DNA from: Candidatus Melainabacteria bacterium
Lineage (GTDB): Bacteria; Cyanobacteriota; Vampirovibrionia; Obscuribacterales; Obscuribacteraceae
Length of the DNA: 64,000 bases
Assembly: GCA_016716405.1 (NCBI GenBank)
Contig: JADJWK010000001.1
Location: 678,713 to 742,712 of the forward strand
Direction of reading: 5' to 3'
Position numbers and translations under genes: made by a program. Position 1 is the stretch's first letter; the number at the start of each line of letters is the position of its first letter. The notes under the pieces are model-generated. The model was given only the letters and a program-made list of their open reading frames with translations, searched no databases and was not told where the DNA came from. Below, one piece after another: positions 1 to 17,437 of this stretch.

Positions 1-284
1 TACATGCCTTCGACGTGGGTGCCGCTGTCCTGCTCGAAAACGCGCACGAACTGCTTGTCCGTGGGGACGGTCACCGAGGGATGTCCGTGGAGGGGACCCC
101 AGCACCAGGCGCAGAACTCGAAGTGTTCGGCGCAGGCGTCACACAGGGTGAAGTTGGGGCTGTCCGTCCAGGGCACGTGTGCGCTGGGAAGCTGAGACTG
201 CTGAACATGACTTGCTGCCTGGCAAGTTCCCCGCACCGAGGTGTCGGGTTTCTTTTCCTGGCAGGTTGAACAGAGCTTTGCCAT
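1..284 (-). CDS. Cys-rich hypothetical protein, 5' part only (ORF runs off window start); CxxC...CxxC-x5-CxxC pattern suggests a zinc ribbon
   Basis: Reverse-strand translation from ATG at 284 gives MAKLCSTCQEKK...CDACAEHFEFCAWCWGPLHG... with no stop before position 1. GGAGG lies 8 nt upstream of the ATG. Co-oriented with the prkA operon. Confidence 0.4.
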   Translation of the reverse strand, partial: MAKLCSTCQEKKPDTSVRGTCQAASHVQQSQLPSAHVPWTDSPNFTLCDACAEHFEFCAWCWGPLHGHPSVTVPTDKQFVRVFEQDSGTHVEGM

Positions 285-322
285 AGGTTGAACCTCCGGT
301 TAGGTTTGTCCTCGCTTGGGAC

Positions 323-1351
323 CTAGCGATGCCGGTGCTTGAGACCGCAGCCGACGTCGCAACGGGTCGAGCCGCCGAGCTCGCTCTCGAAACCCTCTTC
401 GATCATGAACTGCTTCATCGCGTCCTTCGAAGGAACGATGATGCGTCCCATGACCTGAGCCATCACCTTGTTGTGGACATCCCAGGGGTTGAGCTGGAAC
501 ATCACATAGGTGAAGCCGTCCGGGTTCGAGGGCACGCCCTCGGGGCTCTCTTCCTGAATCATGCGCACACCGACTGCCAGAAGCCCGTGGCTGGGAGCCC
601 AGGACCGCGACAGGGTGAGCGGGTTGACTTCATCAGGAGCGCTGGAAGAAGGTTCGGATGCCGCGACTGCGGCAACGACGGGATTGTCCCCGCCGTCCGA
701 ATCGTGACTCGGCTCGCCGCCTTCGACCTTGTCCGGAGACTGGGAGGCCAGAGCGGTGAGCGCCTCGATGGCGTCGGCCTGGGTCGGGCGATCGTCGTCG
801 GTGACCGGCGCCTGGGGAACGAAGCCGTACTTGGCGAGGTCGATGTCGACCTTCACCTCTTCGACGGGTTCGCCTTCGCCCTTGTCCAGCGACGAAAGCG
901 CCGGCGGGCTCTGCATGGTTCCCGGATGGAGCTGCTCGCGGATGTAATCCTCGAGGCTCAGGTCACCGGTGTAGGCCTCGAACTTGAAAGCCTTGCCTTC
1001 CGCGTCCTGGGTCAGGTAGTGCGGTTGGGGGCTCTCCACCATCTTCTGGCGGAGCATCGGGTCCATGCCGGCGGCGTTGGGCAGCTCGTAGGGACGCAGG
1101 GTCGTCTGGAGGAGCTCCCTCCCGTCGAGGAGGATGCGCACCTCGAGGGCCTGGCGGGCGCCGATGACGACACCGAAGTTGCCGTGGCCGACCATGCGGA
1201 AGTGGTTGGGCGGGTAGCCCTTCACGTCAAAACCGAAAGCGGGCATGCGGTTGCCGCCGAGGACTCCGACCATCACGTGTCGGGCGAAGCCACCCTTGTC
1301 GACGACAACCAGCCCGTTCGGAAGAGCGGGGATGCCTTTGTTCATCTTCAT
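323..1351 (-). CDS. Hypothetical protein, ~343 aa: N-terminal Gly/Val-rich globular domain, acidic Ser/Pro/Asp-rich low-complexity middle, C-terminal domain ending CDVGCG
   Basis: ORF track 323..1435. Start reassigned to ATG at 1351 (MKMNKGIPALPNG...) with AAGGAG 8 nt upstream. Immediately downstream of and co-oriented with spoVR. Confidence 0.6.
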   Translation of the reverse strand: MKMNKGIPALPNGLVVVDKGGFARHVMVGVLGGNRMPAFGFDVKGYPPNHFRMVGHGNFGVVIGARQALEVRILLDGRELLQTTLRPYELPNAAGMDPMLRQKMVESPQPHYLTQDAEGKAFKFEAYTGDLSLEDYIREQLHPGTMQSPPALSSLDKGEGEPVEEVKVDIDLAKYGFVPQAPVTDDDRPTQADAIEALTALASQSPDKVEGGEPSHDSDGGDNPVVAAVAASEPSSSAPDEVNPLTLSRSWAPSHGLLAVGVRMIQEESPEGVPSNPDGFTYVMFQLNPWDVHNKVMAQVMGRIIVPSKDAMKQFMIEEGFESELGGSTRCDVGCGLKHRHR

Positions 1352-1448
1352 ACTGAATCTCCTTAGCTGATAAGGTAATTGCCAGTTAGAACAGCGACGA
1401 GGGCGCAAGCCTTGCAGCCTGCGCCCCCGAAGCACTGTTACCGGCGGC

Positions 1449-3314
1449 TTACAGCCAGCGCTCCTTGACGGTCTTGCCGTTGTCGCAGGAGTACTGGTAC
1501 GGACGCGGCGGACCCCACGGACGCCCGTAAGCGTCGGTGAGGATCTCCATGGTCAGGAGCCTGACCGCGTCACCACAGAGCCGCCAGAAGTACCGCAGCG
1601 TCTGCCGCGCATAGCCCTGGCGAAGCGGACCGAAGTCCGGGTCGAACTCGTGACGGAGAGTCCAGGTCTGCGCGTTGTTGTGCCGGCCGGTGTCGACGAT
1701 CTTGATGTTGGGCAGCGCCTGCAGCCCCGTGCGGAGCAGCATCTGACGCTTGAAGGCGTGCTTGTCCTGGTCGTAGGCGGCAACCGTCTGGATGATTTGC
1801 ATCATCTGCATCAGCACCACCTGCGAAGCCGGGAACTTGGGCGCGCCGTACCCGAAGAAGCCGAGCCAGTCAGCCATCTGGATCTGGTTCATCCAGACCG
1901 AGACGACTTCGAACATCTCCTCGAGGGTCTCCGGGAGCCGGTCGCCCTCGAAGATGTAGTTCGGGTCCCAGCGGACCTGCTTGAGGTGACCGTTGATCAC
2001 CATGATCATCTTCTTGACCCAGCCCAGCGCCTTCTTGTGGAGGGACTCGAAGAAGTCCTCCGTGAGGAAGGTGTAGAACAGGCGCTGGTCGTCGAAGTGG
2101 TCCATGACTTCCAGCAGATAACTGCGGTCCCACTTGTCCACTTCCACCGTCTTCACCTCGTCGGTCTCCACCAGGTCACCCGCGATGCGATCGGGGTAAT
2201 TGCCGGTGGCGATGTCCTCGGCGGTGAGCAGCTTCAGCCGGTTGTAGGTCACGGTTTCCTTGCCGATGACCCGGCTGTGCTTCCGGTCGATGTAGTCGAT
2301 GATCGCTTCGCCCAGCGCGTAGGGGTCGCTGTACCAGTAGATCGGCCACGCGTCGTGCATGGTGTCATAGGCGGCAGCGTCGAGCATCTTGTCCATGCCC
2401 AGGCGGATCATGTCCAGCTCGGGCTCGTGCGGGATGCGCCGGTCGACAAAGTGCGAGACGCCTTCGTGGAGGGTCTTGGTGCGGCCCACCACCTGGGTGC
2501 TGTAGCGGTTTTCGAAGCGGGTCATCTCGATGATGCGCCGCGCCTCGTCCGGCAGATGCTTGGTGTTGTCCGGGTCCATCAGGAAGCCCAGCAGGTCGCC
2601 GGTGGGCATGATCGGGTGGCAGGAGAGGTGACGGACCGTGTCGCGGATGTCATCCTCGATGGCCTTGCGGTCGGGCTCGGTCTTGGCCAGCGTCCAGGCA
2701 TGCTTCAGGTTCTCGAGCTTTTCCTCGAGCTCCTTGCGCATCTCGGAGTCGGTGGGCTGTCCGACAGGCGTCGGCAGCGGTCCGGAGTAGTTCTCCAGCG
2801 CGTGAGCCGCGTCGGCATAGTACTCGTACCGGTCCCAACCCCACTCCTTGGGATTCTCGACCAGGCTGCGGACGAAGGCTTCGTCCTGGGCGAACCGATA
2901 GAGGGCGGTCGCCTGCTCGGTCTCCCGGTGCCAGCGGTTGTTGGTGAACAGGTGAACGTGACCCAGCCACGCGTGGATGATCACGTGGATGTGCATGACC
3001 AGGTCATTGGTCGAACCGAGGACGACTTCAGCCGGGTCCGAGATCGTTGCGAACTCGAACACGTGGCCGCCCTGGCCGCGCTGACGGCTCTGCTGAGCCG
3101 CCTTGCCGTACCACCACGCCGGGCGGCTGACGCCGACACCGAGCGGGTAGACGAGGTCGTCGAGGACCTGCTGGTCCGACTTGAGACGGAAGATCGCGCG
3201 GCACGGGTCGAGCCCGTACCGCTTTCCAACTGCCAGGATCCGCGGAACCATGATGTTCAGGTTGCGGACTACCTGGGCTTCCTGGGGATTGGAAGTCAGA
3301 ATTTTCGTATCCAT
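1449..3314 (-). CDS. spoVR: SpoVR/YcgB family protein
   Basis: 621-aa ORF with the conserved SpoVR-family layout. AAGGAG RBS before ATG at 3314. Last gene of the canonical prkA-yeaH-spoVR triad. Confidence 0.85.
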   Translation of the reverse strand: MDTKILTSNPQEAQVVRNLNIMVPRILAVGKRYGLDPCRAIFRLKSDQQVLDDLVYPLGVGVSRPAWWYGKAAQQSRQRGQGGHVFEFATISDPAEVVLGSTNDLVMHIHVIIHAWLGHVHLFTNNRWHRETEQATALYRFAQDEAFVRSLVENPKEWGWDRYEYYADAAHALENYSGPLPTPVGQPTDSEMRKELEEKLENLKHAWTLAKTEPDRKAIEDDIRDTVRHLSCHPIMPTGDLLGFLMDPDNTKHLPDEARRIIEMTRFENRYSTQVVGRTKTLHEGVSHFVDRRIPHEPELDMIRLGMDKMLDAAAYDTMHDAWPIYWYSDPYALGEAIIDYIDRKHSRVIGKETVTYNRLKLLTAEDIATGNYPDRIAGDLVETDEVKTVEVDKWDRSYLLEVMDHFDDQRLFYTFLTEDFFESLHKKALGWVKKMIMVINGHLKQVRWDPNYIFEGDRLPETLEEMFEVVSVWMNQIQMADWLGFFGYGAPKFPASQVVLMQMMQIIQTVAAYDQDKHAFKRQMLLRTGLQALPNIKIVDTGRHNNAQTWTLRHEFDPDFGPLRQGYARQTLRYFWRLCGDAVRLLTMEILTDAYGRPWGPPRPYQYSCDNGKTVKERWL

Positions 3315-3326
3315 AGTCGCAACTCC

Positions 3327-4745
3327 TTATTCAGATTCGGCGGAGCGGTCACCGGTCATGATCTTCATCATGGCCTCGGGGACGTCGTCGAGCGTTTTGC
3401 AGCGAGCCCAACCACAGTGTTGCCGGACATCGGACGGAGTGTTCTGAACGGAGCGCATGCCCTCGGTCATTCCACCCCAGCCCCAGCCCAGGTCCACTTC
3501 GCAGTAGCCGAAGTAGTTGAAACCGCCACGGATGAGCTTCGCGATCCAGCCGGAGATGACGTCCTCCCCATCGAAGGAGAAGCCGTCGGTGGCATGGAGC
3601 GAATACTTGTTCCAGGCGTCGCCGCCGAACTCGGCCTGGGCGATTTGCCAGGTGAGCTCGTGGGTCGGAGCGAAGGCGGTGCCTCCGTTTTCCCCGACGC
3701 GGAAGAAGTCGGCCTCGGACCGGATGCGCTCCGCCCGGTGGTTGTGGGCGATGTACACCACCGCGACGGTGTTGTACTTGGTGCGCAGCCAGATGAGGTT
3801 GAGCAGGAAGTAGAACTTGGCGATTGCCAGAGGTTCGCCAGCCATGGAGCCGGAGGTGTCCAGGTTCATGAACACCACGGCCTTGCTGTCCGGGTCCCAC
3901 CGCTCTTCCACCCGCTTGAAGCGGAGGTCGGTCTTGTGGAACGGGAAGTCTTCGGCGGACGGGTAGCTGTCGGGGGTGAGCCCGGGGAAGTCGTCGGGAC
4001 GAGCGTTGATCATCGTCTTGAAACGCTCGAGTCGCGCCTTGGCAGTTGCGACCTTGTCCCAGCGAGCCATCGGACCGGTCTTCTTGAGACCGCGCATCTT
4101 CATCGAGTAGACGAGAAGCTTGTCCTCATCCGTCTGCTTCAGGAACGGGAGGTCGAAGAGCAGCTTGAGCAGCTCGACGAACTCTTCGTAGGTGATGGGG
4201 AGATAGACGATGTCGGCATCGTCTTCACCGGCCTGGGAGCCACCGCCACCGCCACCAGCCTTGTCGCGGCCGGGCCACCAGGACGGCTCATCGATGCCGA
4301 TCGGCACTTCGATGTTGCCGCCGGCGGCGAAGGTGCTGGCGTTCATCGGCACGTAGATCATGCCGGACTCGCTGGCAACGAAACAGTCCCTCATCAGCTC
4401 ATGACTGAGAAGCAGATTGGCCAGCCGGGTGATCGGCTTGCCTTCGGTCATGTCCATGATGCCACTGTCACCACGGATAATCTGCTTCAAAACATCTTTG
4501 GTGATCTTCGGCTTGGCGCGCTCCATGAAGCGGCGCCTGTCGTCGATCGTACGGTCGAGATAGGCCGGTTGCGGAAGGACCACGGAAGTACGGGTCCTCT
4601 CCGGTGGAGAGTTCAGCCAGTCCACGAGCAGCGTCTGGAACTCCTGGTCAGGAGCCTGGGCTTCCGTGGTCGGCATGATTTCGCCATGCGGGGTCTCGCC
4701 AGCCTTCTTGTCGCCGTGAGGCTTCTTGAAGTCTTTCTTAGCCAT
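3327..4745 (-). CDS. yeaH: YeaH/YhbH family protein (DUF444, vWA-like)
   Basis: 472-aa ORF with Gly-rich GGGGGGS linker and vWA-like C-terminal half typical of YeaH/YhbH. Lies between prkA and spoVR as in E. coli yeaG-yeaH and B. subtilis prkA-yhbH. Confidence 0.85.
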   Translation of the reverse strand: MAKKDFKKPHGDKKAGETPHGEIMPTTEAQAPDQEFQTLLVDWLNSPPERTRTSVVLPQPAYLDRTIDDRRRFMERAKPKITKDVLKQIIRGDSGIMDMTEGKPITRLANLLLSHELMRDCFVASESGMIYVPMNASTFAAGGNIEVPIGIDEPSWWPGRDKAGGGGGGSQAGEDDADIVYLPITYEEFVELLKLLFDLPFLKQTDEDKLLVYSMKMRGLKKTGPMARWDKVATAKARLERFKTMINARPDDFPGLTPDSYPSAEDFPFHKTDLRFKRVEERWDPDSKAVVFMNLDTSGSMAGEPLAIAKFYFLLNLIWLRTKYNTVAVVYIAHNHRAERIRSEADFFRVGENGGTAFAPTHELTWQIAQAEFGGDAWNKYSLHATDGFSFDGEDVISGWIAKLIRGGFNYFGYCEVDLGWGWGGMTEGMRSVQNTPSDVRQHCGWARCKTLDDVPEAMMKIMTGDRSAESE

Positions 4746-4888
4746 TGATAACCTCCATCAGGACGTGCTACTTGCGTAGCCAGTCGGTTAGTTGAGAAGA
4801 CAGAAGGGGGGCGAGGTCACGATGGACCCCGCCCCCACGACTGATTCGCGAACCGCCGACTAGGCTGCGCCTAGGTCAGCGAGTTCGA

Positions 4889-7276
4889 TTAAGCGACCAG
4901 GAAGTCGCGCGTCATCGCCACCTCGACGAGCAGCTTCTCAGCCGTGTACTCGTCGTAGCCGTGCTCCTTGATGAGGCGTGCCTTGGCACCGTCGAGACGC
5001 TCCTTCTCCTCCTTGGTGAGGTTCGTGAGACCGATCACGCCGGTGATGTCCTTGGCCTGCCGCAGCACGTAGGATTCGATGCAGCGCTTCAGACCCTCGT
5101 GGCAGGTGTACGGGGGCTCCGACACACCGTGCTCATCCTTGTACGCGTCGACCGCCACCATGACGTTGGTGCGGAACTTGTCCGCCTGCGCCGTGTTGAT
5201 GGCGATGGTGTCGGCGCGCTCGATCTCCTGCAGGAAGCGCTCCATGTCCTGAGCGGTCAGGTACTGGCCGCCGGAGAAGCCCTGCTTCGGAGTCGTGCGG
5301 TTGAGGGACTTGATGTACTCCAGGTACTTCCGGAAGAAGTTCTGGCACAGGTCGGTGAAGTTCGGGATGAACGCCGCCTTGTACACCTTGGTCAGCTCGG
5401 GACGACGGAACTCGCGCTCCATCGGGCCCTGCAGCCAGCCGACCCACTTCTCCTTCGTCTTCTGGTCGAGACGGGGATCCTTGGAGAACCGCGCGATCAT
5501 GTGGTCACGCAGCTCGGCGACGGTGAAGCCCGCCGAGACGCGCTTGCCGGTCTCGAACTCCTGCCTGGCCTGAGCGGCCAGGTCGCCGAGGATGGAGTCC
5601 ATGTCGCGGGGCGACATGCCGTCCAGACCCTCGGTCCACGGAGCCTTCTCGCGAAGGGCGCGGAACTCGAGCTCGGTGCCCATGCCCGGCTGACGCACGG
5701 TCTCGCCCATGTAGGCGCGGAGGACCGGCATGAAGCCCAGGTTACCCTTGCTCGCCCAGTCGAGGTGAGTCGCCACCCGGAACATGCCGGTGTAGAGGCT
5801 CATCAGGGGCTCGCGGTGGACGCCGCCCTTGTCGGCGGGACGCCCGAAGGACGACAGCGAGTACAGCTTCTCCGTCACCGCCGCGGCCTGCTGCGGCTCG
5901 AGCGGATAGGTGAAGCTCACCCAGTGCAGACGGTCGTTGTGAGCGCGGTGGTCCGGATTGCTCCAGAACTTGTTCCACTGCTCGTCGTTGGAGTGGATGA
6001 TGATCATCCCCTCCCAGCCCACGCCCTGCTGGTGGTGGTTACCCAGCGGATCGGGCAGGGACAGGCGCTGACCTTCCAGACCCTCGAGCAGGATCCGGAA
6101 GCCCTCGGGCGGGTTGCGGAAGCCCTCGGTGAGGATGATCAGCTTGCCCTTGTTGAACACGCCGGACGGGCTGACGGTCCGCGGGTCGCGGTCGTCGTAG
6201 AGGCCCAGCGCCGAGATGTCGACGTCACCACGCCACACCTTCAGGTCGAAGTTGATGGGCTGCACTTCGGCAACGTCCACCATGCCCTCGCCTTCGGACA
6301 TGAACATGTTGTCGATGGGGAAATCGCCCAGGTCGACGGCGTACGACTCGTCGAAGTGGCCGTACTTCTCGTCGCCCTTGCGCTTGCCCTTCAGCTCGCC
6401 GTACTTCTCGGTGAGACCGGCGAGATCCATGACGTCGCGGTCGACCAGAGCCGGACCGAAGAACTCGCCCAGCACCACGTCCTGCGCCCAGGGGTCGGGG
6501 CGGACGAGCGCGTCGACGGTCGCCTTCGGCAGGTTCAGACCGAAGCACACGATCTTCACGAAGTCCTCCTCGCTCGCCATGACGATGGCGGCGAGTTCGG
6601 CGGCGCCGAGCTCCTGGCCGGCCTTGAAGCCGTGCTTCTTGGCGATGGAGCCGACCTCGGTGACGCTGAAGTCGAGAGCGGACTCGCCGCTCAGGTCCAG
6701 ACGCTCGATGATGCCGGTGAGCTCCTTGACCATGGCGTCACGACGACGCTTGGTCTTCTTCGCCGCGATGAGCTTGGGCAGGAAGAGCGCGTTCAGCGGG
6801 TTCGCCCACATCGGGGAGCCGCCCAGGAACGGGATGGGCTCGCGCCGACGCATGATCTTGTACTGGATCATGTTGACGAAGTCGGACTTGCCGGCGCCGG
6901 GCGAACCGGTGATGGCCAGTGCCTTCTTACGGGCACGACCGCCCTCGGCAGCCTGGTAGCCGTAGGAGTTGACGATCTTGTGGATCGGGTCCTCGACGCC
7001 GAAGAAGGCGTCGCAGCTGTTGTAGGCCGGCACTTCGTGGCCGGTCATGCGGAGCAGGGCTTCGGCGCGGGCCATGTTGAGACCGTCGCGCACGAAGAGG
7101 CGGTGGAAGGCCGCGTGGGTGGGCTCGACGTATGCCGGGTGCCGACGGACGACCTTCAGAAAGTCACGCAGGGTGGCCTTGAGACCTTCCTTCTCGAACG
7201 AGTACGGAAACGGGTCCTCAGGCAGGAACAGGTGCGGGTGGGATTCCCGCGTGTACAGGATGTTGTTACTGGACAT
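4889..7276 (-). CDS. prkA: PrkA family serine protein kinase (YeaG-like), AAA+ N-domain with intact P-loop GSPGAGKSD
   Basis: 795-aa ORF. Walker A ITGSPGAGKSDFV present. Overall PrkA/YeaG architecture (N-terminal AAA, C-terminal kinase-like). Confidence 0.9.
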   Translation of the reverse strand: MSSNNILYTRESHPHLFLPEDPFPYSFEKEGLKATLRDFLKVVRRHPAYVEPTHAAFHRLFVRDGLNMARAEALLRMTGHEVPAYNSCDAFFGVEDPIHKIVNSYGYQAAEGGRARKKALAITGSPGAGKSDFVNMIQYKIMRRREPIPFLGGSPMWANPLNALFLPKLIAAKKTKRRRDAMVKELTGIIERLDLSGESALDFSVTEVGSIAKKHGFKAGQELGAAELAAIVMASEEDFVKIVCFGLNLPKATVDALVRPDPWAQDVVLGEFFGPALVDRDVMDLAGLTEKYGELKGKRKGDEKYGHFDESYAVDLGDFPIDNMFMSEGEGMVDVAEVQPINFDLKVWRGDVDISALGLYDDRDPRTVSPSGVFNKGKLIILTEGFRNPPEGFRILLEGLEGQRLSLPDPLGNHHQQGVGWEGMIIIHSNDEQWNKFWSNPDHRAHNDRLHWVSFTYPLEPQQAAAVTEKLYSLSSFGRPADKGGVHREPLMSLYTGMFRVATHLDWASKGNLGFMPVLRAYMGETVRQPGMGTELEFRALREKAPWTEGLDGMSPRDMDSILGDLAAQARQEFETGKRVSAGFTVAELRDHMIARFSKDPRLDQKTKEKWVGWLQGPMEREFRRPELTKVYKAAFIPNFTDLCQNFFRKYLEYIKSLNRTTPKQGFSGGQYLTAQDMERFLQEIERADTIAINTAQADKFRTNVMVAVDAYKDEHGVSEPPYTCHEGLKRCIESYVLRQAKDITGVIGLTNLTKEEKERLDGAKARLIKEHGYDEYTAEKLLVEVAMTRDFLVA

Positions 7277-7293
7277 GATTGTGTCTCCTAGCT

Positions 7294-9570
7294 TTAGGCT
7301 TGATGCGACCAGACCTTGACGCGCTTGGCATACTCGAGAATCTGCTTCTGCCCCTTGGGGGTGTAGCCGAGCTTCTCGAGCAATTCCTTGGCGGTGAGCA
7401 GGCGAGCCCGCTCCTTTTCATCAAGGTCGGACACAACTTCGGTTGTGAGGAGTTTCTGGACTGCTTCGCCAATCTCGGTGTCGAGCTTGGTGCGAATCGC
7501 GTTGGCGAGCTCGGGAACGGTCTCCCAGGTCTCCCTGTACTCGCGTGCAAGGGCCTTGCGCCGTTCCTTATACTCTTCCGAATCGGGTTCGAGACCCTCG
7601 AGCTTCTGCTCGATGATTTCGTCCTTGCGGTCGGACAGCATGGTCTGAAGCGCCTTGCGGAACTTCTTCTCATCGTCGTCGAGGAACGCCCCCTTCGACT
7701 TGCCGACGCGGATGCGGTCGAGGTCATTGAGGAGGTCCTCGTTGACCGGAATTTCACCGAGCTTGCTGTGCCGGACCTTCTTATCGCCGACGGCGTAGCC
7801 GATGGCGTGCAGGACGTAGTCCTGGAAGAGCTCCTGAGCGCGCTCTTCGTAGTCCGGGGCAAACACGTGCAGGATCTGATGCTTCAGCAGACGGCGGTAC
7901 TCGGATTCGATGAGACCGGGCCTGCTGCTGGCTTCCGCCGCCCAGGATTCGTCGCCGGGCTTGGGAGAGCCGCCGAGCCACTTCTGGCACCGCTTCAGGA
8001 TGGCGGTCTGCTCGGGCGTCAGGTTGGTGGTGTCGACGAGCTTCTGGTGGATGACCTGCCGCAGGAGCATGATCGCTTCCAGCGCGGTCACCGACTGATC
8101 TCCTTCACGGCCGAGACCGTACTGGTTCAGCCGGGAAAGCAGGCTCATCATGAACCGCATGTCGAGCCCGGCCAGACCTTCGTCCGGACCGACGAGGCTC
8201 CACATCAGCTGCGGCGTGATGGCGACGTTGTCGGGCAGAGACTTGGCCTGCGCTCCCGGGACGGGACCACCGCTCCGGCTGCTGGCGATGCCGCCGCCGT
8301 AGCCACCGCTGCTCGTGCTGGCCTGCTCGGTGGCCCAGGTGTTGGACCAGTCGGAGCCGGTGCGGGGCTTGACCTTCACGTGCTCGCCCTGCAGCAAGCG
8401 CATCCGGTCGATGGGATCGATGAAGGGTTCACCTTCCTTGGGCACCGCATAGCGGCTGATGACGGCGAGGGTCGCAATCATCTTAAGAGCGAGCGGTCCG
8501 AACAGCGCCTTTTTCTCGTACCGTTCCATCTCGGTCAGGTAGGCGCGCTCCTCCTCCACACGGACCAGGTTGTACGGCAGCTTCAGCTGCTCGCTCCTGC
8601 CGGTGAAGGCATCCATGTCCGGAAGGGTCTTGAGGAACGTCTCGAACGCCCCACGGTTCGTGGAAGCGTACATGAAAACATCGAGCGGGCTCGGGGCAAC
8701 GGTCTCGTGACCGCTGCAGAGTCCGGGCAGTCGCCGGTACTGAGTGGCATCCAGGAGGATGAGCCGCTCATCGGTCTTGCCGGGCTCGACCTCGCGCTCC
8801 ATGAAAGCGTCGGGCATGGAGAGGATGCCGCGGTTCGCGCGCCGGAGGGCGGCGACCAGCGAGCAGTCCTGTCCCGGAACCCATTCGAAGATGCCGGCCG
8901 AACGGCGAGACAGGCGGATGCGCTCCACCTTGACCTCGGCCAGGGACGGCGTCTCCCTGGGATTGTCGAGATCACCCATGACTGCCGTGTAGCAGTGCTG
9001 GCAGGGCTCGCCGGCGGTAAGCAGCATGTGCTGGAGCACAGCGAGCTCGATACCGGCCGCTTCCGCCACGCCTGCCAGCTGCTCCTTGGACAGGAACTTG
9101 AGCAGGTTCAGGGGGTTCTCGTGGTCGGGGCAACCCTTGACCGCGTAGACAGTACCGTGGGACTCGAGAGCCCGGGCGATACCGTCCTGAAAGAAGTCCT
9201 TGCCGGAGGCAGGACCACCTTCAACAACCAGAAGCTTCTTGAGTTGTGCGCCACCACCGGCGGCGGGCTCGAGAAACCTCTTAATCAGCCTGTAGGCAAA
9301 GAGCTGGCTACCACAGACGTGCCGGAAGGCCTTCCACGAGGGGATGCCGATCTTCTTCAGGGTCTGAAGAAAGGCGCGGCGCTCGCAGTCGGTCTCCTGG
9401 TCGACCTCCTCTTCACCCATCGATTCGATGGCGCGAAGAATCACCGCCGGGGCGGTGTCGGCGTACTCCGGATGCTTCGCGAGGTCCCTGAGGAACTCGA
9501 CGTAGGTCTTCGGAGGTTCGCACAGAGGAGGTAGCGCAAGGGCTTTGCTCAGTCGGTCATCATTTTGCAT
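7294..9570 (-). CDS. Second PrkA-family paralogue with degenerate P-loop (GGPASGKD)
   Basis: ORF track 7294..9678. Start set to ATG at 9570 (MQNDDRLSK...) with GGAGG 9 nt upstream. Same domain order as prkA but the Walker A Ser/Thr is replaced by Asp. Confidence 0.8.
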   Translation of the reverse strand: MQNDDRLSKALALPPLCEPPKTYVEFLRDLAKHPEYADTAPAVILRAIESMGEEEVDQETDCERRAFLQTLKKIGIPSWKAFRHVCGSQLFAYRLIKRFLEPAAGGGAQLKKLLVVEGGPASGKDFFQDGIARALESHGTVYAVKGCPDHENPLNLLKFLSKEQLAGVAEAAGIELAVLQHMLLTAGEPCQHCYTAVMGDLDNPRETPSLAEVKVERIRLSRRSAGIFEWVPGQDCSLVAALRRANRGILSMPDAFMEREVEPGKTDERLILLDATQYRRLPGLCSGHETVAPSPLDVFMYASTNRGAFETFLKTLPDMDAFTGRSEQLKLPYNLVRVEEERAYLTEMERYEKKALFGPLALKMIATLAVISRYAVPKEGEPFIDPIDRMRLLQGEHVKVKPRTGSDWSNTWATEQASTSSGGYGGGIASSRSGGPVPGAQAKSLPDNVAITPQLMWSLVGPDEGLAGLDMRFMMSLLSRLNQYGLGREGDQSVTALEAIMLLRQVIHQKLVDTTNLTPEQTAILKRCQKWLGGSPKPGDESWAAEASSRPGLIESEYRRLLKHQILHVFAPDYEERAQELFQDYVLHAIGYAVGDKKVRHSKLGEIPVNEDLLNDLDRIRVGKSKGAFLDDDEKKFRKALQTMLSDRKDEIIEQKLEGLEPDSEEYKERRKALAREYRETWETVPELANAIRTKLDTEIGEAVQKLLTTEVVSDLDEKERARLLTAKELLEKLGYTPKGQKQILEYAKRVKVWSHQA

Positions 9571-10208
9571 GATGTCTAACCTCCATCTAGGTTGAGAGTT
9601 CGGCAGCCGTCTGGCCGCCTGACTGTCAGAAGTTGACAAACAGCTTGGAACTGAGAGCTCAGCACGAAGTACCCGCATGACTCACGCGAGAGCTCGTGCG
9701 AAAAGCCCGATGACGGAGCGACCTGTTTGCTTCGGTCGATTGTCCGCCAGGCAGTAAAGCCGCCCGAAACCAGCAGTGTCTACCGGGTCTCACAGGGGAA
9801 ACAACAACCAGAACCACGCGGTGGTCCTGGTCTGAGGTGTTTTCTGAGAAAGTTTGCTGGTTGAACGGGCTTTAGAGTTGGGTTTCCGAAGTGAATGGGA
9901 TCCGATAGATACATCTAAACTAACAAGAACGAGTCCAAGAGCAAAAATAACTATTGTCTATATTTCCCATATCCTTTGACAATTCTGAAGAAAAGCCTAA
10001 CCCTGGTTGTCGAGTGGTGGGATGCCGGGGTTCTTGACAACCAGAAAAGGTCAATCTGTTTGTTTTTGCGAGGCTTGCCAATAGACCGGAAAATGATCCT
10101 CTTGAGAGCCTATTTTGGGGTATATTGAGAGGCGTTTTTAGCCGCTTAAGCCCGCTTAATGCCTACCTTCACGGTGTTTAAGGAATGCGCGGGGGGTTAG
10201 CGAAGCTA

Positions 10209-11337
10209 TCAGAGGATTGCTTCTACCCCGTCAGCGCTAGCTTTATGGCGAAGGTAGGAATCGATAAATTGATCCAGGTCGCCATTCAGGACGGCCTCGA
10301 CATGGGGGGTCTCGGTCCTGGTTCGATTGTCCTTCACCATCCGGTCATCGAGCACGTACGAGCGTATGGCGTTTCCGAAAGAAGCTTGTACTGACTCGCC
10401 TTTCAGTCTTGCCAGCTCTTCCTCTCTTTCGGCGTGCTTGATCGCCAGGAGTTTCGAGCGGAGAAGCTCCATGGCCAGAGCGCGATTCTGTAGCTGGCTC
10501 CGCTCCTGCTGGCACTTGACGGCGATGCCGGTGGGTAAATGGACGATCCGGACAGCGGTCTCCACCTTGTTGACGTTCTGTCCGCCGGCTCCCCCGGAGC
10601 GCATGGTCTCGACCTCGATCTCATCGTCGGCAATCTCGATGAGGGATTCTATGTCATTCATGATCGGGGTCACGTCAACCGCTGCGAAGCTCGTCTGGCG
10701 GCTGTCGTTGCCAGCCTTGAAAGGGGACTTCCGGACCAGTCTGTGGACGCCTTTCTCGCAGGACATGTAGCCGTAGGCGAAAGGTCCCTCCACTTTGAAA
10801 GTGGCGCTCTTGAGACCGGCCTCCTCTCCAGGTGATTTGTCGATGATCTCGGTCTTGTAGCCTTTTACCTCGCACCATCTCAGGTACATGCGCAGGAGCA
10901 TCTCCGCCCAGTCCTGGGCGTCGGTGCCCCCGGCGCCGGCGTTGATGGTGACGATGGCGGAGGACTCGTCATACTCGCCGGATAGCAGGCGCTCGAGCTC
11001 ATAGCGCTCGAGATCGCGGTTGAGCCGATCCACCCCTTCTTTGATCTCTTTGACCACCGATTCGTCGTCTTCCTCGAGTCCCAGGTCGGCAAGGACTTTC
11101 AGATCCTCTGTGCTGGACAGCCAGGAGTCGTACATTTCCAGGGTCTTCTGCAGGCGGCTGAGAGCCCTGGTCGTTTGCTGGGCGGATTTCTGGTCTTGCC
11201 AGAAATCCGGATCCTGGGTCTCATTCTCCAGCTCGGCAATCTTTTCTTTTATAGAGTCAGGGTCAAAGATACTGGCTGACTTTCGTCAACCGCTCCTCGA
11301 TGGCATCCAGCTCTTTTCTCAAATCGGACAGCATCAT
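10209..11337 (-). CDS. prfB: Peptide chain release factor 2, expressed via programmed +1 ribosomal frameshift
   Basis: ORF 10209..11135 carries the GGQ motif and RF2 body. Upstream frame from ATG at 11337 encodes [24 protein letters not shown] then in-frame UGA within CTT TGA C (11269..11263). A +1 shift continues [14 protein letters not shown]... into the main ORF. Confidence 0.9.
11263..11269 (-). promoter_or_regulatory. prfB: prfB programmed +1 frameshift site CUU UGA C
   Basis: Canonical autoregulatory RF2 frameshift heptamer read directly on the minus strand. Confidence 0.85.
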
Positions 11338-11408
11338 GACAAACCTTTTCCAAGTCATCAGACATATTATATTGTTCTGGACTCAGCGGCCATGGAATAA
11401 GTAGGAAG

Positions 11409-12587
11409 ATGACGCGCTCGATCTGGCTGGACCAAACTGACGAACGACCCGGCAGGGGCGAATCGGGGCGTGCCGATGTCGTAATCGTCGGCGGAGGGCT
11501 TCTCGGCGCCTGTCTTGCTTATCATCTTTCCCGGCGACCGGGGCTTTCGGTGATCTTGCTCGAGTCCGGAGTGCTGGCCGGCGCTTCCTCCGGGCGCAAC
11601 GCCGGTTTCGTCCTGCGGGGGATTCAGACCTATTACAACGAATGTGTGAGACGATTCGGTAGGGACAGGGCGCAGTCCATATATTCTTTCGTTCAGGAAA
11701 GCCAGTCCATGCTGCGGGAATTCGCCGAGAAAGAAGGCATCGCTGTCGATGCCCGGGGGTCTTACCTTCTGGCTGCTTCCATCGAGGAGCTCGAGGAGCT
11801 GGAGGAGTCCAGCCAGCTTATGAAGGAAGACGGATTCGAAGTGGAGTTCTTGAAAGACGATCCCCTGGACCGTGACTATTACGGCGCTCTCTATAATCCC
11901 TGTGATTTCGGCATCAATCCGGTGCAGCTGGCGCGGCGGCTCCTGGCATCGGCCTCCGAGCAGGGCCGGCTTACGGTGCTCGAGGGAGAGCATGTTCTAC
12001 GAGTCACCAGGGACGGCCGGGAGGGTGCCCTGACAGTCCACAGCGTCGGGGGTACTTATCATTGCGACCGGGTCCTTTTCGCCACCAACGCTTTCAGCTG
12101 CCTGATCGATGACTGGTTCGAGGGCAAGTTCCACACGGTACGGGGTCAGATCCTGGTCACCGAGCCTCTCGAGAAGGAAGTGGTGGACCGGCTCTGTTAT
12201 GCCAATTATGGCTGGGTTTATTTCAGGCAGCTTCCGGACCGGCGTTTGCTCCTGGGAGGCAGGCGGCAGCTTTTCCTCGATGAGGAGGTGGGTTATGCCG
12301 ATATCATCACGCCATCGGTGCAGGCAGCCCTGGAGGACTATCTCCGGGACTATTTCCCCGAGGTGGTAGGGGCCGCCATAGACTATCGCTTTTCCGGTGT
12401 CATGGCATACACCGGAGACGGCTTGCCGCTTCTGGGAGAGCATCCGGAATTGAAGGGCTTATTCTTCGCCCTGGCTTTCAATGGTCATGGTCTCGGTTAT
12501 GCCATGAAAGTGGCGTCGCATCTCATATCCGTGGCTCTGGACGGAGCCGAGCCCGGCCTCTTCGATGCCGCCAGAGATCAGTCCTAG
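11409..12587 (+). CDS. FAD-dependent oxidoreductase (DAO family, glycine/D-amino-acid oxidase-like)
   Basis: N-terminal dinucleotide-binding motif VVIVGGGLLGACLAYHL...GRNAGFV. 392 aa. Confidence 0.8.
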   Translation: MTRSIWLDQTDERPGRGESGRADVVIVGGGLLGACLAYHLSRRPGLSVILLESGVLAGASSGRNAGFVLRGIQTYYNECVRRFGRDRAQSIYSFVQESQSMLREFAEKEGIAVDARGSYLLAASIEELEELEESSQLMKEDGFEVEFLKDDPLDRDYYGALYNPCDFGINPVQLARRLLASASEQGRLTVLEGEHVLRVTRDGREGALTVHSVGGTYHCDRVLFATNAFSCLIDDWFEGKFHTVRGQILVTEPLEKEVVDRLCYANYGWVYFRQLPDRRLLLGGRRQLFLDEEVGYADIITPSVQAALEDYLRDYFPEVVGAAIDYRFSGVMAYTGDGLPLLGEHPELKGLFFALAFNGHGLGYAMKVASHLISVALDGAEPGLFDAARDQS

Positions 12588-13726
12588 AGCAGGTGCGATG
12601 CCGGCTCGAAAGGCGAGTAGCCGTCGTCGTTGGGAATGACGCGCTGGCCTCCGACGAGCATGCCGGGCTTGGGGACTGACACTCCGCCTACCTTGACATC
12701 GACCGTGAGAACACAGGGAACATTGTCCAGTGCCGGGACGATGATGGCTATCGAAGATTCGCTGCAGGAGTTTATGGTCGCGGTGTTTCCATTGACCCTT
12801 ACCTCTATGTCTTTTCTGTCTTTAGAGAAATTCTTGCCGCTTATTGTGAGGATGCCACCCGGGTTGACGCTTACCATGTCCATTGAGGTGATCTCCGGCT
12901 TGCCGGCGATGGTGAGGGTGAAGGTCTTCATTTTCTGACCGGATACGGTGATTTCGACAGACTTGTCTTTGCCTGCCTTCAACTTGTCCGGGACCGTGAA
13001 TTCGATGAACTTGGGATCAGCCTTGCTGACTTCTGCGAGCTGTCCATCGACTTTGACTGTGATTGCTTTCTTGTCTTCAGGAAGATTTTTGCCGTTGGCT
13101 TTCACCTTGTCTCCGGCACCGGCGCGGGTAGGAGCCAGCCCGGTGATGCTGGGCTCCGCGGTGGTGGAGATCTGCCATTTGAATGCCGACCCGGCTGCTC
13201 CAAAGGCCTGGAATATGATCTGGGTGGAGCCGGAGGTCAGAGCGTTGGAAAGATCCATGGACAGGGTCGGCTTGCCTTTGAAATCAGCTTCCTTGAAAAG
13301 ATCACGTCCGGCCAGGGTGGCTCTCAGCCCTCTCAGGGGCTTGGTGCCGGAGCTGCCGTTCAGGACGCCCAGAGTGAGGGGGAGAAGCTCCTGTCCGGGT
13401 TGAAGAACTATGTAGTCGGCGAATTGCTCCCATTTGCCGCCGCCGGCGCAGACATGCTGTTTCGGCTTGACGATCAGGGCAGGCTTTTTCTTGGCTGTCT
13501 TGGTGCTGGTTTTGCCGGTATCTTTGGAATCTTTAGCGTCGGAGGCCTTGCCGTCGGCGTTTTTCTGATTGGCACTGCTGGTAGTGGCGGTTTTCACTTC
13601 TTGAGGCGCTTTTTCCTTGCCGTAGGTCTGGATGTACGGCGATTGAGCCCGGGCGGTCAGACCGCCTGCCGCAATCATTGCTACGGAAAGAGCCACTATA
13701 GATTTGAGTGATTTGCCTGCTAGCAT
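12584..13726 (-). CDS. Secreted protein with repeated IPT/TIG-like Ig-fold domains and Lys/Thr-rich linker
   Basis: Signal peptide MLAGKSLKSIVALSVAMIAAGGLTARAQS. Repeated ~80-aa beta-rich modules (…ITVSGQKMKTFTLTIAGKPEITS…, …ISGKNFSKDRKDIEVRVNGNTATINSCSESSIAIIVP…). Confidence 0.65.
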   Translation of the reverse strand: MLAGKSLKSIVALSVAMIAAGGLTARAQSPYIQTYGKEKAPQEVKTATTSSANQKNADGKASDAKDSKDTGKTSTKTAKKKPALIVKPKQHVCAGGGKWEQFADYIVLQPGQELLPLTLGVLNGSSGTKPLRGLRATLAGRDLFKEADFKGKPTLSMDLSNALTSGSTQIIFQAFGAAGSAFKWQISTTAEPSITGLAPTRAGAGDKVKANGKNLPEDKKAITVKVDGQLAEVSKADPKFIEFTVPDKLKAGKDKSVEITVSGQKMKTFTLTIAGKPEITSMDMVSVNPGGILTISGKNFSKDRKDIEVRVNGNTATINSCSESSIAIIVPALDNVPCVLTVDVKVGGVSVPKPGMLVGGQRVIPNDDGYSPFEPASHLL

Positions 13727-13815
13727 TTTCGCTAATTTCCTTTTCGATTAGACCGGACAGGGTCATTATAGATTCTTGCGCGGTCTTTTGCAGAAAACGG
13801 CTGCTGACATCCGGC

Positions 13816-14820
13816 TCAAAAAGTAACTGTTTCTTTGTGTCCGAGGAGGAACTCATCGATGTCGGCTGATGTGGGGAGAGCCGGTATGGCGCCGGCTTTC
13901 GTGCAGGCCAAACCGCCGATGGCGTTGGCCCGTTTGACGATGTTCTCCAGGGTGTTCAAGTCCAGTCCGTTGAGAGTGGCTTTACGGTCTTTGCTATCTT
14001 TTATATGACTGAGGAGCCCGGCGAGAATACCGGCATTGAATCCGTCCCCGGCGCCAGTGGCTTCCACCAGCTTGATAGAGAAGCCGGGTATGGTCCTGGC
14101 GGTCTTGGGAGTAGCAAAGAAGGCTCCTCTCGAGTCCAGGGTTATGATGAAGAGACTGAGGCCATTCTCTGATCGGAGCTTCTCGGCTTCTTTCAGGTCG
14201 GTTTTTCCGGTGAGAAACTCGAGCTCCGGTTCGTTGATCTTGACTATGTCTGCCCATGACAGCGAGTCGAGAATTGCTTTGCGGCAGGCTTCCGGCGAAG
14301 GCCAGAGGCTGAGACGTACATTAGGATCATAAGATATGAGCATGCCATTTTCCCTGGCCAGCTCGACTGCTCGCCTGGTAGCCGAGCGCGCCGGCTCCTC
14401 GATCAGCGAGATCGAGCCGAAATGGAGGACCGACGCGTTCTTGAAGAGCTCCGGCTTGAGGTCCTCGGCGGTGAGTCTCGTGTCCGCGCAGGAAATTCGC
14501 GAGAATTCGGCCAGTTTCCGATCCCCGGTGGAGGTGGTGACGACATAAGCCATGCGGGTCTGGGCCTGGCTGTCTTCAATGGTACAGTCGACGTTGATGC
14601 CGTTCTCCCTCAGGACGGATTTGAGCCAGATCCCGAACTCGTCCTTGGAGACTCGACCGATGAAAGCCGTATCGACGCCCTGCCTTGCCAGGCCGACCGC
14701 GGTGTTGGCCGGCGCTCCGCCAGGAGCCTTGGTAAAGGATTCGGCATCCGGGAGCTCGGCACCGACAGTGGTGCACACCCAGTCCACCAGAATCTCCCCG
14801 AGACAAAGTACGTCGGACAT
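13816..14820 (-). CDS. PfkB-family carbohydrate kinase (fructokinase/ribokinase-like)
   Basis: N-terminal LCLGEILVDW…GGAPAN and C-terminal GAGDGFNAG motifs of the ribokinase/PfkB superfamily. Confidence 0.85.
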   Translation of the reverse strand: MSDVLCLGEILVDWVCTTVGAELPDAESFTKAPGGAPANTAVGLARQGVDTAFIGRVSKDEFGIWLKSVLRENGINVDCTIEDSQAQTRMAYVVTTSTGDRKLAEFSRISCADTRLTAEDLKPELFKNASVLHFGSISLIEEPARSATRRAVELARENGMLISYDPNVRLSLWPSPEACRKAILDSLSWADIVKINEPELEFLTGKTDLKEAEKLRSENGLSLFIITLDSRGAFFATPKTARTIPGFSIKLVEATGAGDGFNAGILAGLLSHIKDSKDRKATLNGLDLNTLENIVKRANAIGGLACTKAGAIPALPTSADIDEFLLGHKETVTF

Positions 14821-15249
14821 GTTTTATCTCCTTTGAGTTACTTGCAGTATACCCGCCAAAGCCTGATCCCGTAACGGTCTTGTTCAATTAGGCCAGGTTG
14901 GCTACGCAAGCTGCGCCAACCTGGATGGACCGAACAAGTCAAGAATTAAGGAGCCGGTTCTCCGGTGCGGTTTTATTGACGTCAAGAGGAAAAGGCAGGC
15001 CTGTGCATGTATTGCAGGATGCTGCCCGATTCCTGGCCGAATCCTGCCCGAATCCTCGCGGGTCTCTGGTTTGTTGCACGAGCTTTCCGGTAGGCCTAGG
15101 GTAGAAATATCTCGCAATATCAATCTCAGATCAGGCACAGGGCAACAAACCAGGCAAATTCTCCCGACTTTTCCACGATGCTCCTCGAGCGTCCGGTTTG
15201 GCCCGTGCCCTCAATCCACCTGATGGTGATCGTCGAAAGGAGACACGTC

Positions 15250-15768
15250 ATGAAAAAGCAAAATGACGGCACCATCACCCTCAGGCAGCTCCGTAACTGG
15301 TGCTCCGAGGCGCATGGTGCCCAGACTTACGGAGAGTTTCCGTATTCCTTCCATCTCAGCGCCGTGGAAGCAGTGGCAATTCGTTTCGGCTTCCGCAGCA
15401 GGACCGTTCGAATGGCATGCTGGGCTCACGACGTTCTGGAGGATACGGCAAGGAAATCAAAGGATATGCTGTCAGCCGGATTTCCCCGGCGGGTAGTGAG
15501 CATCGCTGAAGCCGTCACCGACGAGCCTGGCGATACCCGCGAAGAAAGAAAGCAGAAGACCTATCCGAAAATCGCCGGAGACAGGCTGGCTATCATCGTG
15601 AAGTTGTGCGACCGGATTGCCAATGTCGAGAGTTCGCGTATGCGCTCGAGACGCAAGTACCGGCGCTATCAAGAGGAGCACCGAAGCTTCAAGGCTCACC
15701 TCTTCAACCCGCGCGATCGCAAGCTGTTGCCGCTCTGGCAGCACCTGGAGAGGATTCTGGAAGGTTAG
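15250..15768 (+). CDS. Small HD-domain hydrolase, RelA/SpoT-type (p)ppGpp hydrolase-like (small alarmone hydrolase candidate)
   Basis: HDVLEDT motif (HD of the SpoT hydrolase family). Start moved to ATG 15250 (MKKQNDG) with AAGGAG RBS. ~172 aa with no synthetase domain. Confidence 0.7.
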   Translation: MKKQNDGTITLRQLRNWCSEAHGAQTYGEFPYSFHLSAVEAVAIRFGFRSRTVRMACWAHDVLEDTARKSKDMLSAGFPRRVVSIAEAVTDEPGDTREERKQKTYPKIAGDRLAIIVKLCDRIANVESSRMRSRRKYRRYQEEHRSFKAHLFNPRDRKLLPLWQHLERILEG

Positions 15769-16208
15769 ACAAGTGATCGGGAGCGCATCCCGGTCTCTTG
15801 CTCTCCATCCTGATCCTCTTCATTTTTCCGATTGTCTAACTGTAGAGAATAGTAAGTGCCGGAAAGAGCTATCTGCGCCTGACACTGTAACAGATACCGG
15901 TCTTTCCAGGGCTGTGCTCAACCAGGTCCTGGTTTGCCCTGGCTCGAATCAGGGCTGTGACTGGCATTTCAGGCCCGGCCGCAGTTAGCGCGAACGGTTA
16001 AACATTAGCGCGGGTGCGCCAGGCTGGCTTCGAGCTGGTCAGCGCATAATCCGTAAATCTTCTTGAGCGGTACCGAGGCCGGCAATAAGCTCCAGTCTTA
16101 TCTCAATCAACAGCTCTCGATGCAGGAGGAATCAGGAAAAAACAAGAACGTCTGTAATCCGAGACACTCGCATCCCAACATTTAGCAAACGAAGAGGAGC
16201 CAGGCTCT

Positions 16209-17432
16209 ATGAGTCGAACCCATGGTAATGATTTTCACTTGCTTCTGAGCGAGCTTGCCGCTCTGGTCGAAGAGGCGACCCGGTTGCTTGCGGTCCTCGC
16301 CGGTCTCGTCGAGGCATGCAAGCGGGTAGATGCCGAGATCGAGCCGTCCGCCTGGACTGATCTGATCGAGCAGAATCTGGGCGACCAGAGAGGGCTGGAC
16401 ATCGTTTCGGCTAGCCGTCTCGAGACCGTGCTCAGACATCAGGCGGTTTATTACAGCTATCACTCCCGGCGCCACGAGCTACGTGCTGTGCGGGATCGCA
16501 TTGTCGGTCTCGAGAAACAGCTCATCGCCATGCTCGCCGATCCTTCTGTCGTGGCGCCCGGGTCTGAATGGCGAACGGTGATCATAGCCGCTCTGCTCGC
16601 CGCCGACGAAGCGGCAGCAGCCAGCCCTTCTTACGAAGGCACTATGCCCTGTCCCCTGGATATGGACCGGGATCACTTCAGTCTCGTGGCGATCAAGAAG
16701 GCATTTGCCGACCTGATCAAGTATCTGGACAAGCGACCTCAGCGCAAATGCCGTGCCATGAGCCTGACCACCAGTCTGAAAGGGCTCTATTCCTGCAGGC
16801 CTGCAGTCTTGCCGGAAGCGCTCGGTGAGGATGGAGCGGTCCGGGAGATGCGGCAGGTCGCCGGCCTTGCTTTCGTTGATACTGCTAGTGGTGAGCATCC
16901 GCATCTGGCCGCTCTGCCCGCCCGCTTGAAGGAGCTCAGGGACCTGGTGGAAGCAGCCAATCGGGCCGCCGAGCAGTTTCGCAAAGGCGCCAAGGCTGAG
17001 CTGAACGAACGCGACTACGCCCGGCGTCTCGTGGAGGTGCTGGATGCGGGTCTCAGCGACTTCCCTCCCCTCGAGAGCCGCCAGCGCCAGGAGCAGAGCC
17101 GGTATGCCTACGAGAAGTCCAGGAACGCGGTGCTTCTGGCGGTTATGAAGGCGGAGAGCGCTCGCCTGGAAGTGGTTGAGGGTCTCCTGGCAGCGGCGGC
17201 GGAGACCGAGGCTCTGGACGGCGAGATCGAGCGCGATCACCGGGCTACCTGTGAAAAGCTCTTCACTCGCCGCCTCGCTATCCTCCTCTGTCTCGAGGCC
17301 GATGTGCTCATCAGAGAAGCTGGCCGGTGTCTGTCTGCCGCCTACCAGGTTGTCCAGGACGATGTCTCGGACGGACGAGGCAAAGCTGCCCTGGAAGCCC
17401 GATTCTCAGAAGTCGTTAAACGCTTGAGCTGA
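16209..17432 (+). CDS. Hypothetical all-alpha protein (407 aa)
   Basis: Long ORF with GC3-rich codon usage, followed by a clean rho-independent terminator. No recognisable motif. Confidence 0.6.
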   Translation: MSRTHGNDFHLLLSELAALVEEATRLLAVLAGLVEACKRVDAEIEPSAWTDLIEQNLGDQRGLDIVSASRLETVLRHQAVYYSYHSRRHELRAVRDRIVGLEKQLIAMLADPSVVAPGSEWRTVIIAALLAADEAAAASPSYEGTMPCPLDMDRDHFSLVAIKKAFADLIKYLDKRPQRKCRAMSLTTSLKGLYSCRPAVLPEALGEDGAVREMRQVAGLAFVDTASGEHPHLAALPARLKELRDLVEAANRAAEQFRKGAKAELNERDYARRLVEVLDAGLSDFPPLESRQRQEQSRYAYEKSRNAVLLAVMKAESARLEVVEGLLAAAAETEALDGEIERDHRATCEKLFTRRLAILLCLEADVLIREAGRCLSAAYQVVQDDVSDGRGKAALEARFSEVVKRLS

Positions 17433-17437
17433 TTTCG

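Follow-up and report, generated by a model that had tools for sequence, protein, structure and literature searches.

A six-gene PrkA-YeaH-SpoVR cluster with tandem PrkA paralogues and two accessory genes in the Obscuribacterales

The window analysed here is a stretch of 64,000 nucleotides (nt) from a Candidatus Melainabacteria bacterium (contig JADJWK010000001.1, positions 678,713 to 742,712). Its first 9,570 nt hold six genes, all on the minus strand: two adjacent genes of the PrkA family (prkA2 and prkA1), a yeaH gene, a spoVR gene, and two genes of no known family, called g5 and g6. The Obscuribacterales are a lineage of cyanobacterial relatives that do not photosynthesise. New are the description of this arrangement in that order, the way in which the motifs of the PrkA pair have evolved, and the two accessory families. 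The arrangement is less new than an earlier note on this DNA implied, since two PrkA genes with DUF444 and SpoVR have already been published for haloarchaea (PMC3102087). Coordinates below are relative to the window, and protein lengths are in amino acids (aa).

prkA2: 7294–9570, minus strand; 758 aa; PF08298 at 59.5 bits and PF06798 at 40 bits (Pfam cut-off 25)
prkA1: 4889–7276, minus strand; 795 aa; PF08298 at 105.3 bits and PF06798 at 90 bits (Pfam cut-off 25)
Hairpin in the prkA1-yeaH spacer: 4807–4836, minus strand; 12-bp GC-rich stem, then a U-rich tail
yeaH/DUF444: 3327–4745, minus strand; 472 aa; PF04285 at 159 bits (above the Pfam threshold)
spoVR/ycgB family: 1449–3314, minus strand; 621 aa; PF04293 at 95.3 bits (cut-off 27)
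g5: 323–1351, minus strand; 342 aa; no Pfam or NCBIfam family
g6: 1–284, minus strand; first 94 codons, the rest beyond the window end; no Pfam or NCBIfam family

The prkA2 start at 9570 has GGAGG upstream, and the resulting 758 aa agrees with the lengths of its orthologues (755–771 aa). This open reading frame (ORF) carries both Pfam domains of the family, the AAA+ domain (PF08298) and the PrkA C-terminal domain (PF06798), confirming the claim that a second, very divergent PrkA lies directly upstream of the more canonical copy. Neither copy reaches the cut-off of 576 bits of the NCBIfam equivalog NF011999 (109.5 bits for PrkA1 and 50.1 bits for PrkA2), and by these scores both are distant subfamilies relative to the E. 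coli YeaG-type equivalog. The spacers are 17 nt (prkA2-prkA1), 143 nt (prkA1-yeaH), 12 nt (yeaH-spoVR), 97 nt (spoVR-g5) and 38 nt (g5-g6), so the cluster is tightly packed except downstream of prkA1 and of spoVR. A spacing of 13–40 bp had been given for the genes following spoVR, which holds between g5 and g6 but not between spoVR and g5. The length of g5 is also corrected, from 343 to 342 aa.

Profile hidden Markov models (HMMs) were made for the six families and run on all fetched related loci. The order A2-A1-YeaH-SpoVR-g5-g6 was found in 15 related loci, with protein identities down to 20–35%, and the truncated loci agree with it. The arrangement is therefore well beyond chance. The sole exception among loci of sufficient length is L023 (CP064963.1, a complete genome), in which g5 is present and an unrelated ORF replaces g6. 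In this Melainabacteria locus (17886–19581), the expected g6 position is taken by a 285-aa ORF without a Pfam match. Genes flanking the cluster – prfB and genes for a DAO oxidase, a TIG-domain protein and a PfkB kinase – are often syntenic in the relatives too, which points to vertical inheritance of the module. Gene set and order are thus a vertically inherited trait throughout the order Obscuribacterales. That the two downstream genes are conserved partners of spoVR, as had been proposed, was borne out by the neighbourhood comparison, which places both beside spoVR in relatives.

The families are small and narrowly distributed. Among 5.8e9 proteins there were 40 PrkA2, 39 g5 and 55 g6 sequences, and the g5 and g6 families were found nowhere else in this set. 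The g5 protein is 100% identical to a protein from a Candidatus Melainabacteria metagenome-assembled genome (2.86-Mb contig). A phmmer search with PrkA2 against 1.84 billion representatives returned about 20 full-length PrkA2-like cluster representatives, after which scores dropped to ordinary PrkAs. When one genome per species was scanned with the PrkA2 alignment, 17 genomes matched: 13 labelled Obscuribacterales, Obscuribacteraceae or Melainabacteria, two Proteobacteria or Chloroflexota, and two only "bacterium". In four of the most distant relatives, whose contexts were examined (L026–L029), the order is PrkA2, PrkA1, DUF444, SpoVR and then a protein of about 200 aa, and g6 is absent. One of these, the metagenomic contig L029, carries two divergently oriented prkA2-prkA1-yeaH-spoVR modules (1–18660), one of each deep module type.

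PrkA1 and PrkA2 share 25% identity over 142 residues. By profile scoring, the upstream copy is always PrkA2 and the downstream copy always PrkA1. A neighbour-joining tree separates upstream copies, downstream copies and ordinary PrkAs into three clades, and the internal topologies of the PrkA1 and PrkA2 clades mirror each other. The duplication is therefore older than the radiation of the lineage, with the pair evolving as a unit, and PrkA1 and PrkA2 are ancient, co-diverging paralogues. The pair was never split in more than 20 loci, where its spacing is 12–85 nt, and it is duplicated as a unit in L029. Most of about 80 PrkA representatives from outside the Obscuribacterales scored higher with the PrkA1 profile than with the PrkA2 profile. 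Plasmids from other phyla yielded no tandem PrkA: each of the 73 PrkA-matching records has a single copy.

The following sites in the encoded proteins are referred to below:

PrkA2 Walker A, GGPASGKD, aa 118–125: 9196–9219, minus strand; Asp at the Mg-coordinating Ser/Thr position
PrkA2 Cys/His cluster, CPDHENP ... PCQHC (C147, H150, C190, C193): 8992–9132, minus strand; probable Zn site
PrkA2 Walker B region, NRGILSMPDAF, aa 246–256: 8803–8835, minus strand; the acidic residue is Asp
PrkA2 sensor 1, MYASTN (N305), and putative arginine finger, AFTGR (R325): 8596–8673, minus strand; from alignment to E. coli YeaG
PrkA1 Walker A, GSPGAGKS, aa 124–131: 6884–6907, minus strand
PrkA1 segment aligning with the YeaG pore-loop region, aa 342–372: 6161–6253, minus strand
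YeaH DxSxS motif, DTSGS, aa 296–300: 3846–3860, minus strand
g5 C-terminal Cys/His tail, CDVGCGLKHRHR: 326–361, minus strand

The PrkA2 nucleotide site does not match the GxxxxGK[S/T] consensus. The replacement of Ser/Thr by Asp, reported in the earlier note, is confirmed (GGPASGKD in PrkA2, GSPGAGKS in PrkA1), but its description as a degenerate P-loop marking a pseudo-ATPase is unsupported: 30 aligned PrkA2 sequences show little or no variation in GxxxxGK, the Walker B acid, the sensor-1 Asn or the Arg. Within that alignment G118, G123 and K124 of Walker A, N305 and R325 are invariant, and conservation is at least 90% at D125 and at D254, the acidic residue of Walker B. Walker A ends in GKD in 38 of the 40 close PrkA2 orthologues and has Ser in the two most distant. 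In the PrkA2 alignments a GKD Walker A always occurs with PD.F in Walker B, and GKS with E.F; the changes from Ser to Asp and from Glu to Asp look like a compensatory pair. The Walker B of PrkA1 aligns as LIILTEGF.

Across the wider PrkA2 clade the residue after GK is D, N, S, T or G, and canonical GKS or GKT is present in the deeper PrkA2 sequences. Judged from this distribution, the Asp is not random decay but is fixed in a derived subclade. In PrkA1 and about 65 ordinary PrkA representatives with a readable Walker A, the same residue is S or T, with two exceptions. The only PrkA with GKD outside the lineage (P0213, of the canonical type) lies at a contig end, where its context is uninformative. 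Non-canonical P-loops also occur in PrkA1: GPKGSSKS in L022, GPKGAAKS in L023, GGPSTFKS in L027 and GGPSTAKS in L029a. In three of these (L022, L027 and L029a) the PrkA2 of the pair has a canonical P-loop, while in L023 it deviates as well (GPPGSAKS). Odd P-loops of the PrkA2 type are scattered over L017, L023, P0146 and P0149, with the forms GKN, GPPGSAKS and GKG.

YeaG and PrkA1 (aa 342–372) have in common a segment of about 25 residues that is missing from all PrkA2 sequences in the alignment, where it cleanly separates PrkA1 from PrkA2. It may be the pore-loop hairpin, a reading taken from the description of Bacillus PrkA (PMC13001217) as a clade-3-type AAA+ protein, with pore loop 1 on a hairpin located between Walker A and Walker B, rather than mapped here. 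PrkA2 has in addition a C..H ... C..C cluster that is probably a Zn site, with C147, C190 and C193 invariant in the 30 aligned sequences. The corresponding motif, CPMHEEP, is found in the solved PrkA structure 9xip and in a few PrkA1 sequences (L004, L022), and the cluster is lost in the PrkA1 of the window and in E. coli YeaG. The solved structures related to PrkA by sequence are 9xip, 9xiq and 9xir, for which a literature search found no paper; no solved structure had sequence-detectable similarity to SpoVR or YeaH.

The g5 gene lies directly 3' of spoVR in all clusters, including L023, and is thus universal in these clusters as well as lineage-specific. Its product is a β-sandwich interrupted at about aa 145–250 by an acidic, disordered insert rich in Ser, Pro, Asp and Ala. 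What had been called a CDVGCG domain is a Cys/His tail of 12 residues, in which only C335 and H341 are conserved. The gene still adjoins spoVR at 20–30% identity and where the flanks differ (L026, with prfB inverted, L028 and L029). The proteins of about 200 aa at the g5 position of L026–L029 gave weak matches to the g5 HMM in two of the four, the other two being assigned by eye, and all four share the C-terminal motif AVAxNVHR ... C.C..H.

The window holds only the N-terminal part of g6, a double zinc ribbon with CxxC at aa 5–8, 48–51 and 58–61 and a further Cys at C21. Full-length orthologues are about 180–195 aa, with a chagasin-like domain added C-terminally. A structure model was made from P0045, the closest full-length orthologue, with 85% identity across the 94 residues encoded in the window. 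In the model (predicted local distance difference test score, pLDDT, 90) the N-terminal part is a double zinc ribbon, whose seven Cys are invariant, and the C-terminal part is a β-sandwich. In a Foldseek search its top seven matches were all members of MEROPS family I42, with E from 1.7e-8 to 2.3e-5. At the sequence level, 20 of the 51 g6 family members match PF09394 at E<=1 (best 2.2e-5), the closest orthologue of the window gene being without a match.

The canonical inhibitory loops of chagasin carry the motifs NPTTG, GxGG and RPW. None of these occurs in the g6 sequences, which have D-R-[FYW]-S...W, G-Q-Y-G-T-R-E and [YW] at the corresponding positions. There is no signal peptide in g6, and no papain-like (C1) peptidase is encoded in the cluster. 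By the model, g6 has a chagasin-like (I42) fold but is not a demonstrated I42 inhibitor. It is confined to one subclade, being missing in L023 and in the deep-branching modules. A 154-aa secreted ORF in L027 also appeared chagasin-like by eye and was set aside for lack of Pfam support.

The 143-nt spacer after prkA1 contains the hairpin listed above. The same spacer was folded in seven other loci (L001, L003, L004, L005, L026, L028 and L029) and gave a strong hairpin in 7/7. The hairpins of these eight loci have no mutual sequence conservation, and a U-rich tail often follows. The hairpin is likely an internal attenuator or terminator, or an RNA processing site. The cluster is then probably not a simple single operon, with transcription partially stopping, or the RNA being processed, after the PrkA pair. 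A second GC-rich inverted repeat, GGGCGCAgGC ... GCtTGCGCCC, is seen by eye in the 97-nt spoVR-g5 spacer (1352–1448, minus strand). No Rfam family was found in nt 1–12000.

The cluster (1–9570) is 6–11 GC points richer than the flanking sequence (9571–64000), and the same holds in L001, L003, L004 and L005. These five genomes differ widely in overall GC content, from about 37% to 58%. The same excess, together with synteny, is present in all five, which excludes a recent horizontal transfer as the source of the high GC; amino-acid composition or expression level may be behind it. An anti-phage defence function was also rejected, PADLOC giving only noise (E about 0.007).

The module resembles several described systems. 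The bacterial triad – yeaGH and ycgB in E. coli, prkA-yhbH and spoVR in B. subtilis – matches the module in its three families, their order and their location on one strand, and yeaG, yeaH and ycgB show co-fitness in six bacteria (10.1101/072470). Compared with this triad, the Obscuribacterales module has two PrkA genes instead of one, both far from the E. coli-type equivalog, two extra lineage-specific genes after spoVR, and a hairpin that separates off the PrkA pair. The haloarchaeal cluster also matches in gene content: a pair of neighbouring PrkA genes, together with DUF444 and SpoVR, is a signature of all haloarchaea (Anderson et al. 2011, PMC3102087), and the tandem is kept lineage-wide in both groups. 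However, the haloarchaea belong to another domain of life, and g5 and g6 are not reported there. Acidity approaching the haloarchaeal level was seen in a single PrkA2 match (P0269, isoelectric point 4.7). No haloarchaea appeared among the plasmid records with a PrkA match, either in the 40 matches listed or among the named genera. Literature searches found no paper linking Melainabacteria with PrkA or SpoVR and nothing relevant under the gene names prkA1 and prkA2.

The chagasin/ICP family (MEROPS I42, PF09394) differs from g6, which has no signal peptide but an N-terminal double zinc ribbon, and which lacks both the inhibitory loops and a papain-like peptidase in its cluster. Heteromeric AAA+ rings with unequal nucleotide sites, and pairs of MoxR with von Willebrand factor type A (vWA) proteins, offer a comparison for how such a module could work. 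As in those systems, AAA+ paralogues lie side by side, one with a non-standard Walker A, and a DxSxS partner (YeaH) is present; this motif is presumably a vWA-type metal-ion-dependent adhesion site (MIDAS). PrkA differs in having an extra kinase-like C-terminal domain, missing from the heteromeric AAA+ ring and MoxR-vWA systems.

PrkA proteins are oligomerising AAA+ ATPases with a kinase-like C-terminal domain (PMC13001217; PMC9512850). With moderate confidence, the region can be read as the six-gene Obscuribacterales form of the PrkA-YeaH-SpoVR module, in which PrkA1 and PrkA2 would form a hetero-oligomeric AAA+ machine. The two would assemble into one ring, PrkA1 supplying the substrate-engaging loops and PrkA2 acting as a nucleotide-binding, functionally specialised subunit. 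Asp125 and the shortened Walker B Asp would re-shape the handling of Mg2+ and ATP, probably giving slow or regulatory hydrolysis. Only one type of subunit would need a fully standard site, so that the P-loop of either paralogue could drift; this may be why different paralogues deviate in different subclades. The putative MIDAS site of YeaH would serve for docking, as in MoxR-vWA pairs, and SpoVR would work together with PrkA and YeaH, as in other bacteria. The g5 and g6 proteins would be lineage-specific adaptors, regulators or clients, with g6 binding proteins through a re-purposed protease-inhibitor scaffold. The hairpin after prkA1 would probably set a higher ratio of PrkA to YeaH, SpoVR, g5 and g6 expression.

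Several points weigh against this reading. Mirrored PrkA1 and PrkA2 trees are also expected of any two vertically inherited neighbours, and in L023 both paralogues have a G to A change in the P-loop, a misfit to a strict rule of one good site per pair. The motif positions come from aligning the proteins with E. coli YeaG in MAFFT and not from a structure. The pore-loop position of PrkA1 is without the aromatic residue reported for Bacillus PrkA (PMC13001217), which makes its substrate-engaging role uncertain. The activity of PrkA is itself disputed, having been described as a kinase, as a Lon-like protease, or as an ATPase with neither activity (PMC13001217; PMC9512850).

Two other readings of the PrkA pair were considered. 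PrkA2 could be a pseudo-ATPase without catalytic activity, its only role being to regulate PrkA1 or serve as its scaffold. The replacement of the Mg-coordinating Ser/Thr by Asp (Asn or Gly in some relatives), the deletion of the segment aligning with the YeaG pore-loop region, and scores far below those of PrkA1 on the Pfam and NCBIfam PrkA models all point that way. This is nevertheless unlikely, as a dead site would be expected to lose the Walker A Gly and Lys, the Walker B acid, the sensor-1 Asn and the Arg, all of them invariant or nearly so; moreover, the Ser to Asp change co-varies, apparently in compensation, with Glu to Asp in Walker B, deeper PrkA2 sequences have GKS or GKT, and elsewhere PrkA1 is the deviant copy. 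Specialised subunit of a probable hetero-oligomer would thus suit PrkA2 better than pseudo-ATPase. Alternatively, the two PrkAs may be independent homo-oligomeric machines with separate clients, adjacent through shared regulation, with g5 and g6 as clients or as unrelated co-regulated stress proteins. Bacillus PrkA oligomerises alone with ATP (PMC13001217), PrkA is single-copy on the 73 plasmid records, and the paralogues are only 25% identical and differ in their insertions and deletions. This too seems doubtful, and to the same degree, given a pair that stays unsplit at short spacing and was duplicated together in L029. P-loop drift in either paralogue is also easier to explain with a compensating partner, and the retained Arg suggests that PrkA2 acts in trans within a ring.

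For g5 and g6, the alternative is that they are functionally unrelated neighbours kept by synteny alone. Synteny is generally high in the lineage, because the whole neighbourhood, including the prfB, DAO, TIG and PfkB genes, is syntenic in many relatives, and g6 is missing in L023 and the deep-branching modules. Yet g5 adjoins spoVR at 20–30% identity in L026, L028 and L029 despite differing flanks, and both families are confined to the lineage in the protein set searched, which makes this explanation very improbable. At the other extreme, the hetero-oligomer could be an obligate PrkA1/PrkA2 hetero-hexamer with unequal ATP sites, in which g6, derived from a chagasin, and g5 gate a proteolytic or protein-remodelling activity of PrkA-YeaH-SpoVR. 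This is speculative and improbable. If true, the module would at heart be a regulated protease or unfoldase, the Obscuribacterales version having a built-in inhibitor, with direct bearing on the dispute over whether PrkA is a kinase, a protease or neither.

Many bacteria, and the haloarchaea, have the poorly understood PrkA-YeaH-SpoVR stress module, which matters for starvation survival and sporulation, although its biochemistry is disputed. A long-fixed pair of co-evolving PrkAs is a natural experiment in which ATPase features are needed in which subunit, and the module supplies two new candidate partners, one with a protease-inhibitor fold. The segment deletion in PrkA2, the chagasin-like fold of g6 and the hairpin splitting the cluster after prkA1 go beyond the earlier note. 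The organisms are uncultured and the mechanistic steps proposed above are all inference.

Several relatives have genes for an FtsH-like AAA/M41 protease, a thioredoxin-like protein, MoxR (AAA_3/AAA_5), a vWA protein and DUF58 near the PrkA cluster (L028, 8962–12239; L026, 1800–6988; L007, 15785–20543). This may be coincidence or part of a wider proteostasis neighbourhood. Upstream of prkA2, a leader of 638 nt (9571–10208) separates it from the next gene. The leader has a lower GC content (about 52–57%) and a hairpin at 9806–9832. No sigma-54 site was found in it, and a promoter search gave a single sigma-70-like site, no more than expected by chance. The gap between prfB and prkA2 is similarly long in relatives, at about 500–1000 nt. 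The gene upstream of the leader (10209–11135, minus strand) encodes a peptide chain release factor, probably prfB, with PCRF and RF-1 domains in the syntenic relatives. Its ORF is 308 aa, which would presumably fit the usual programmed +1 frameshift of prfB near the 5' end.

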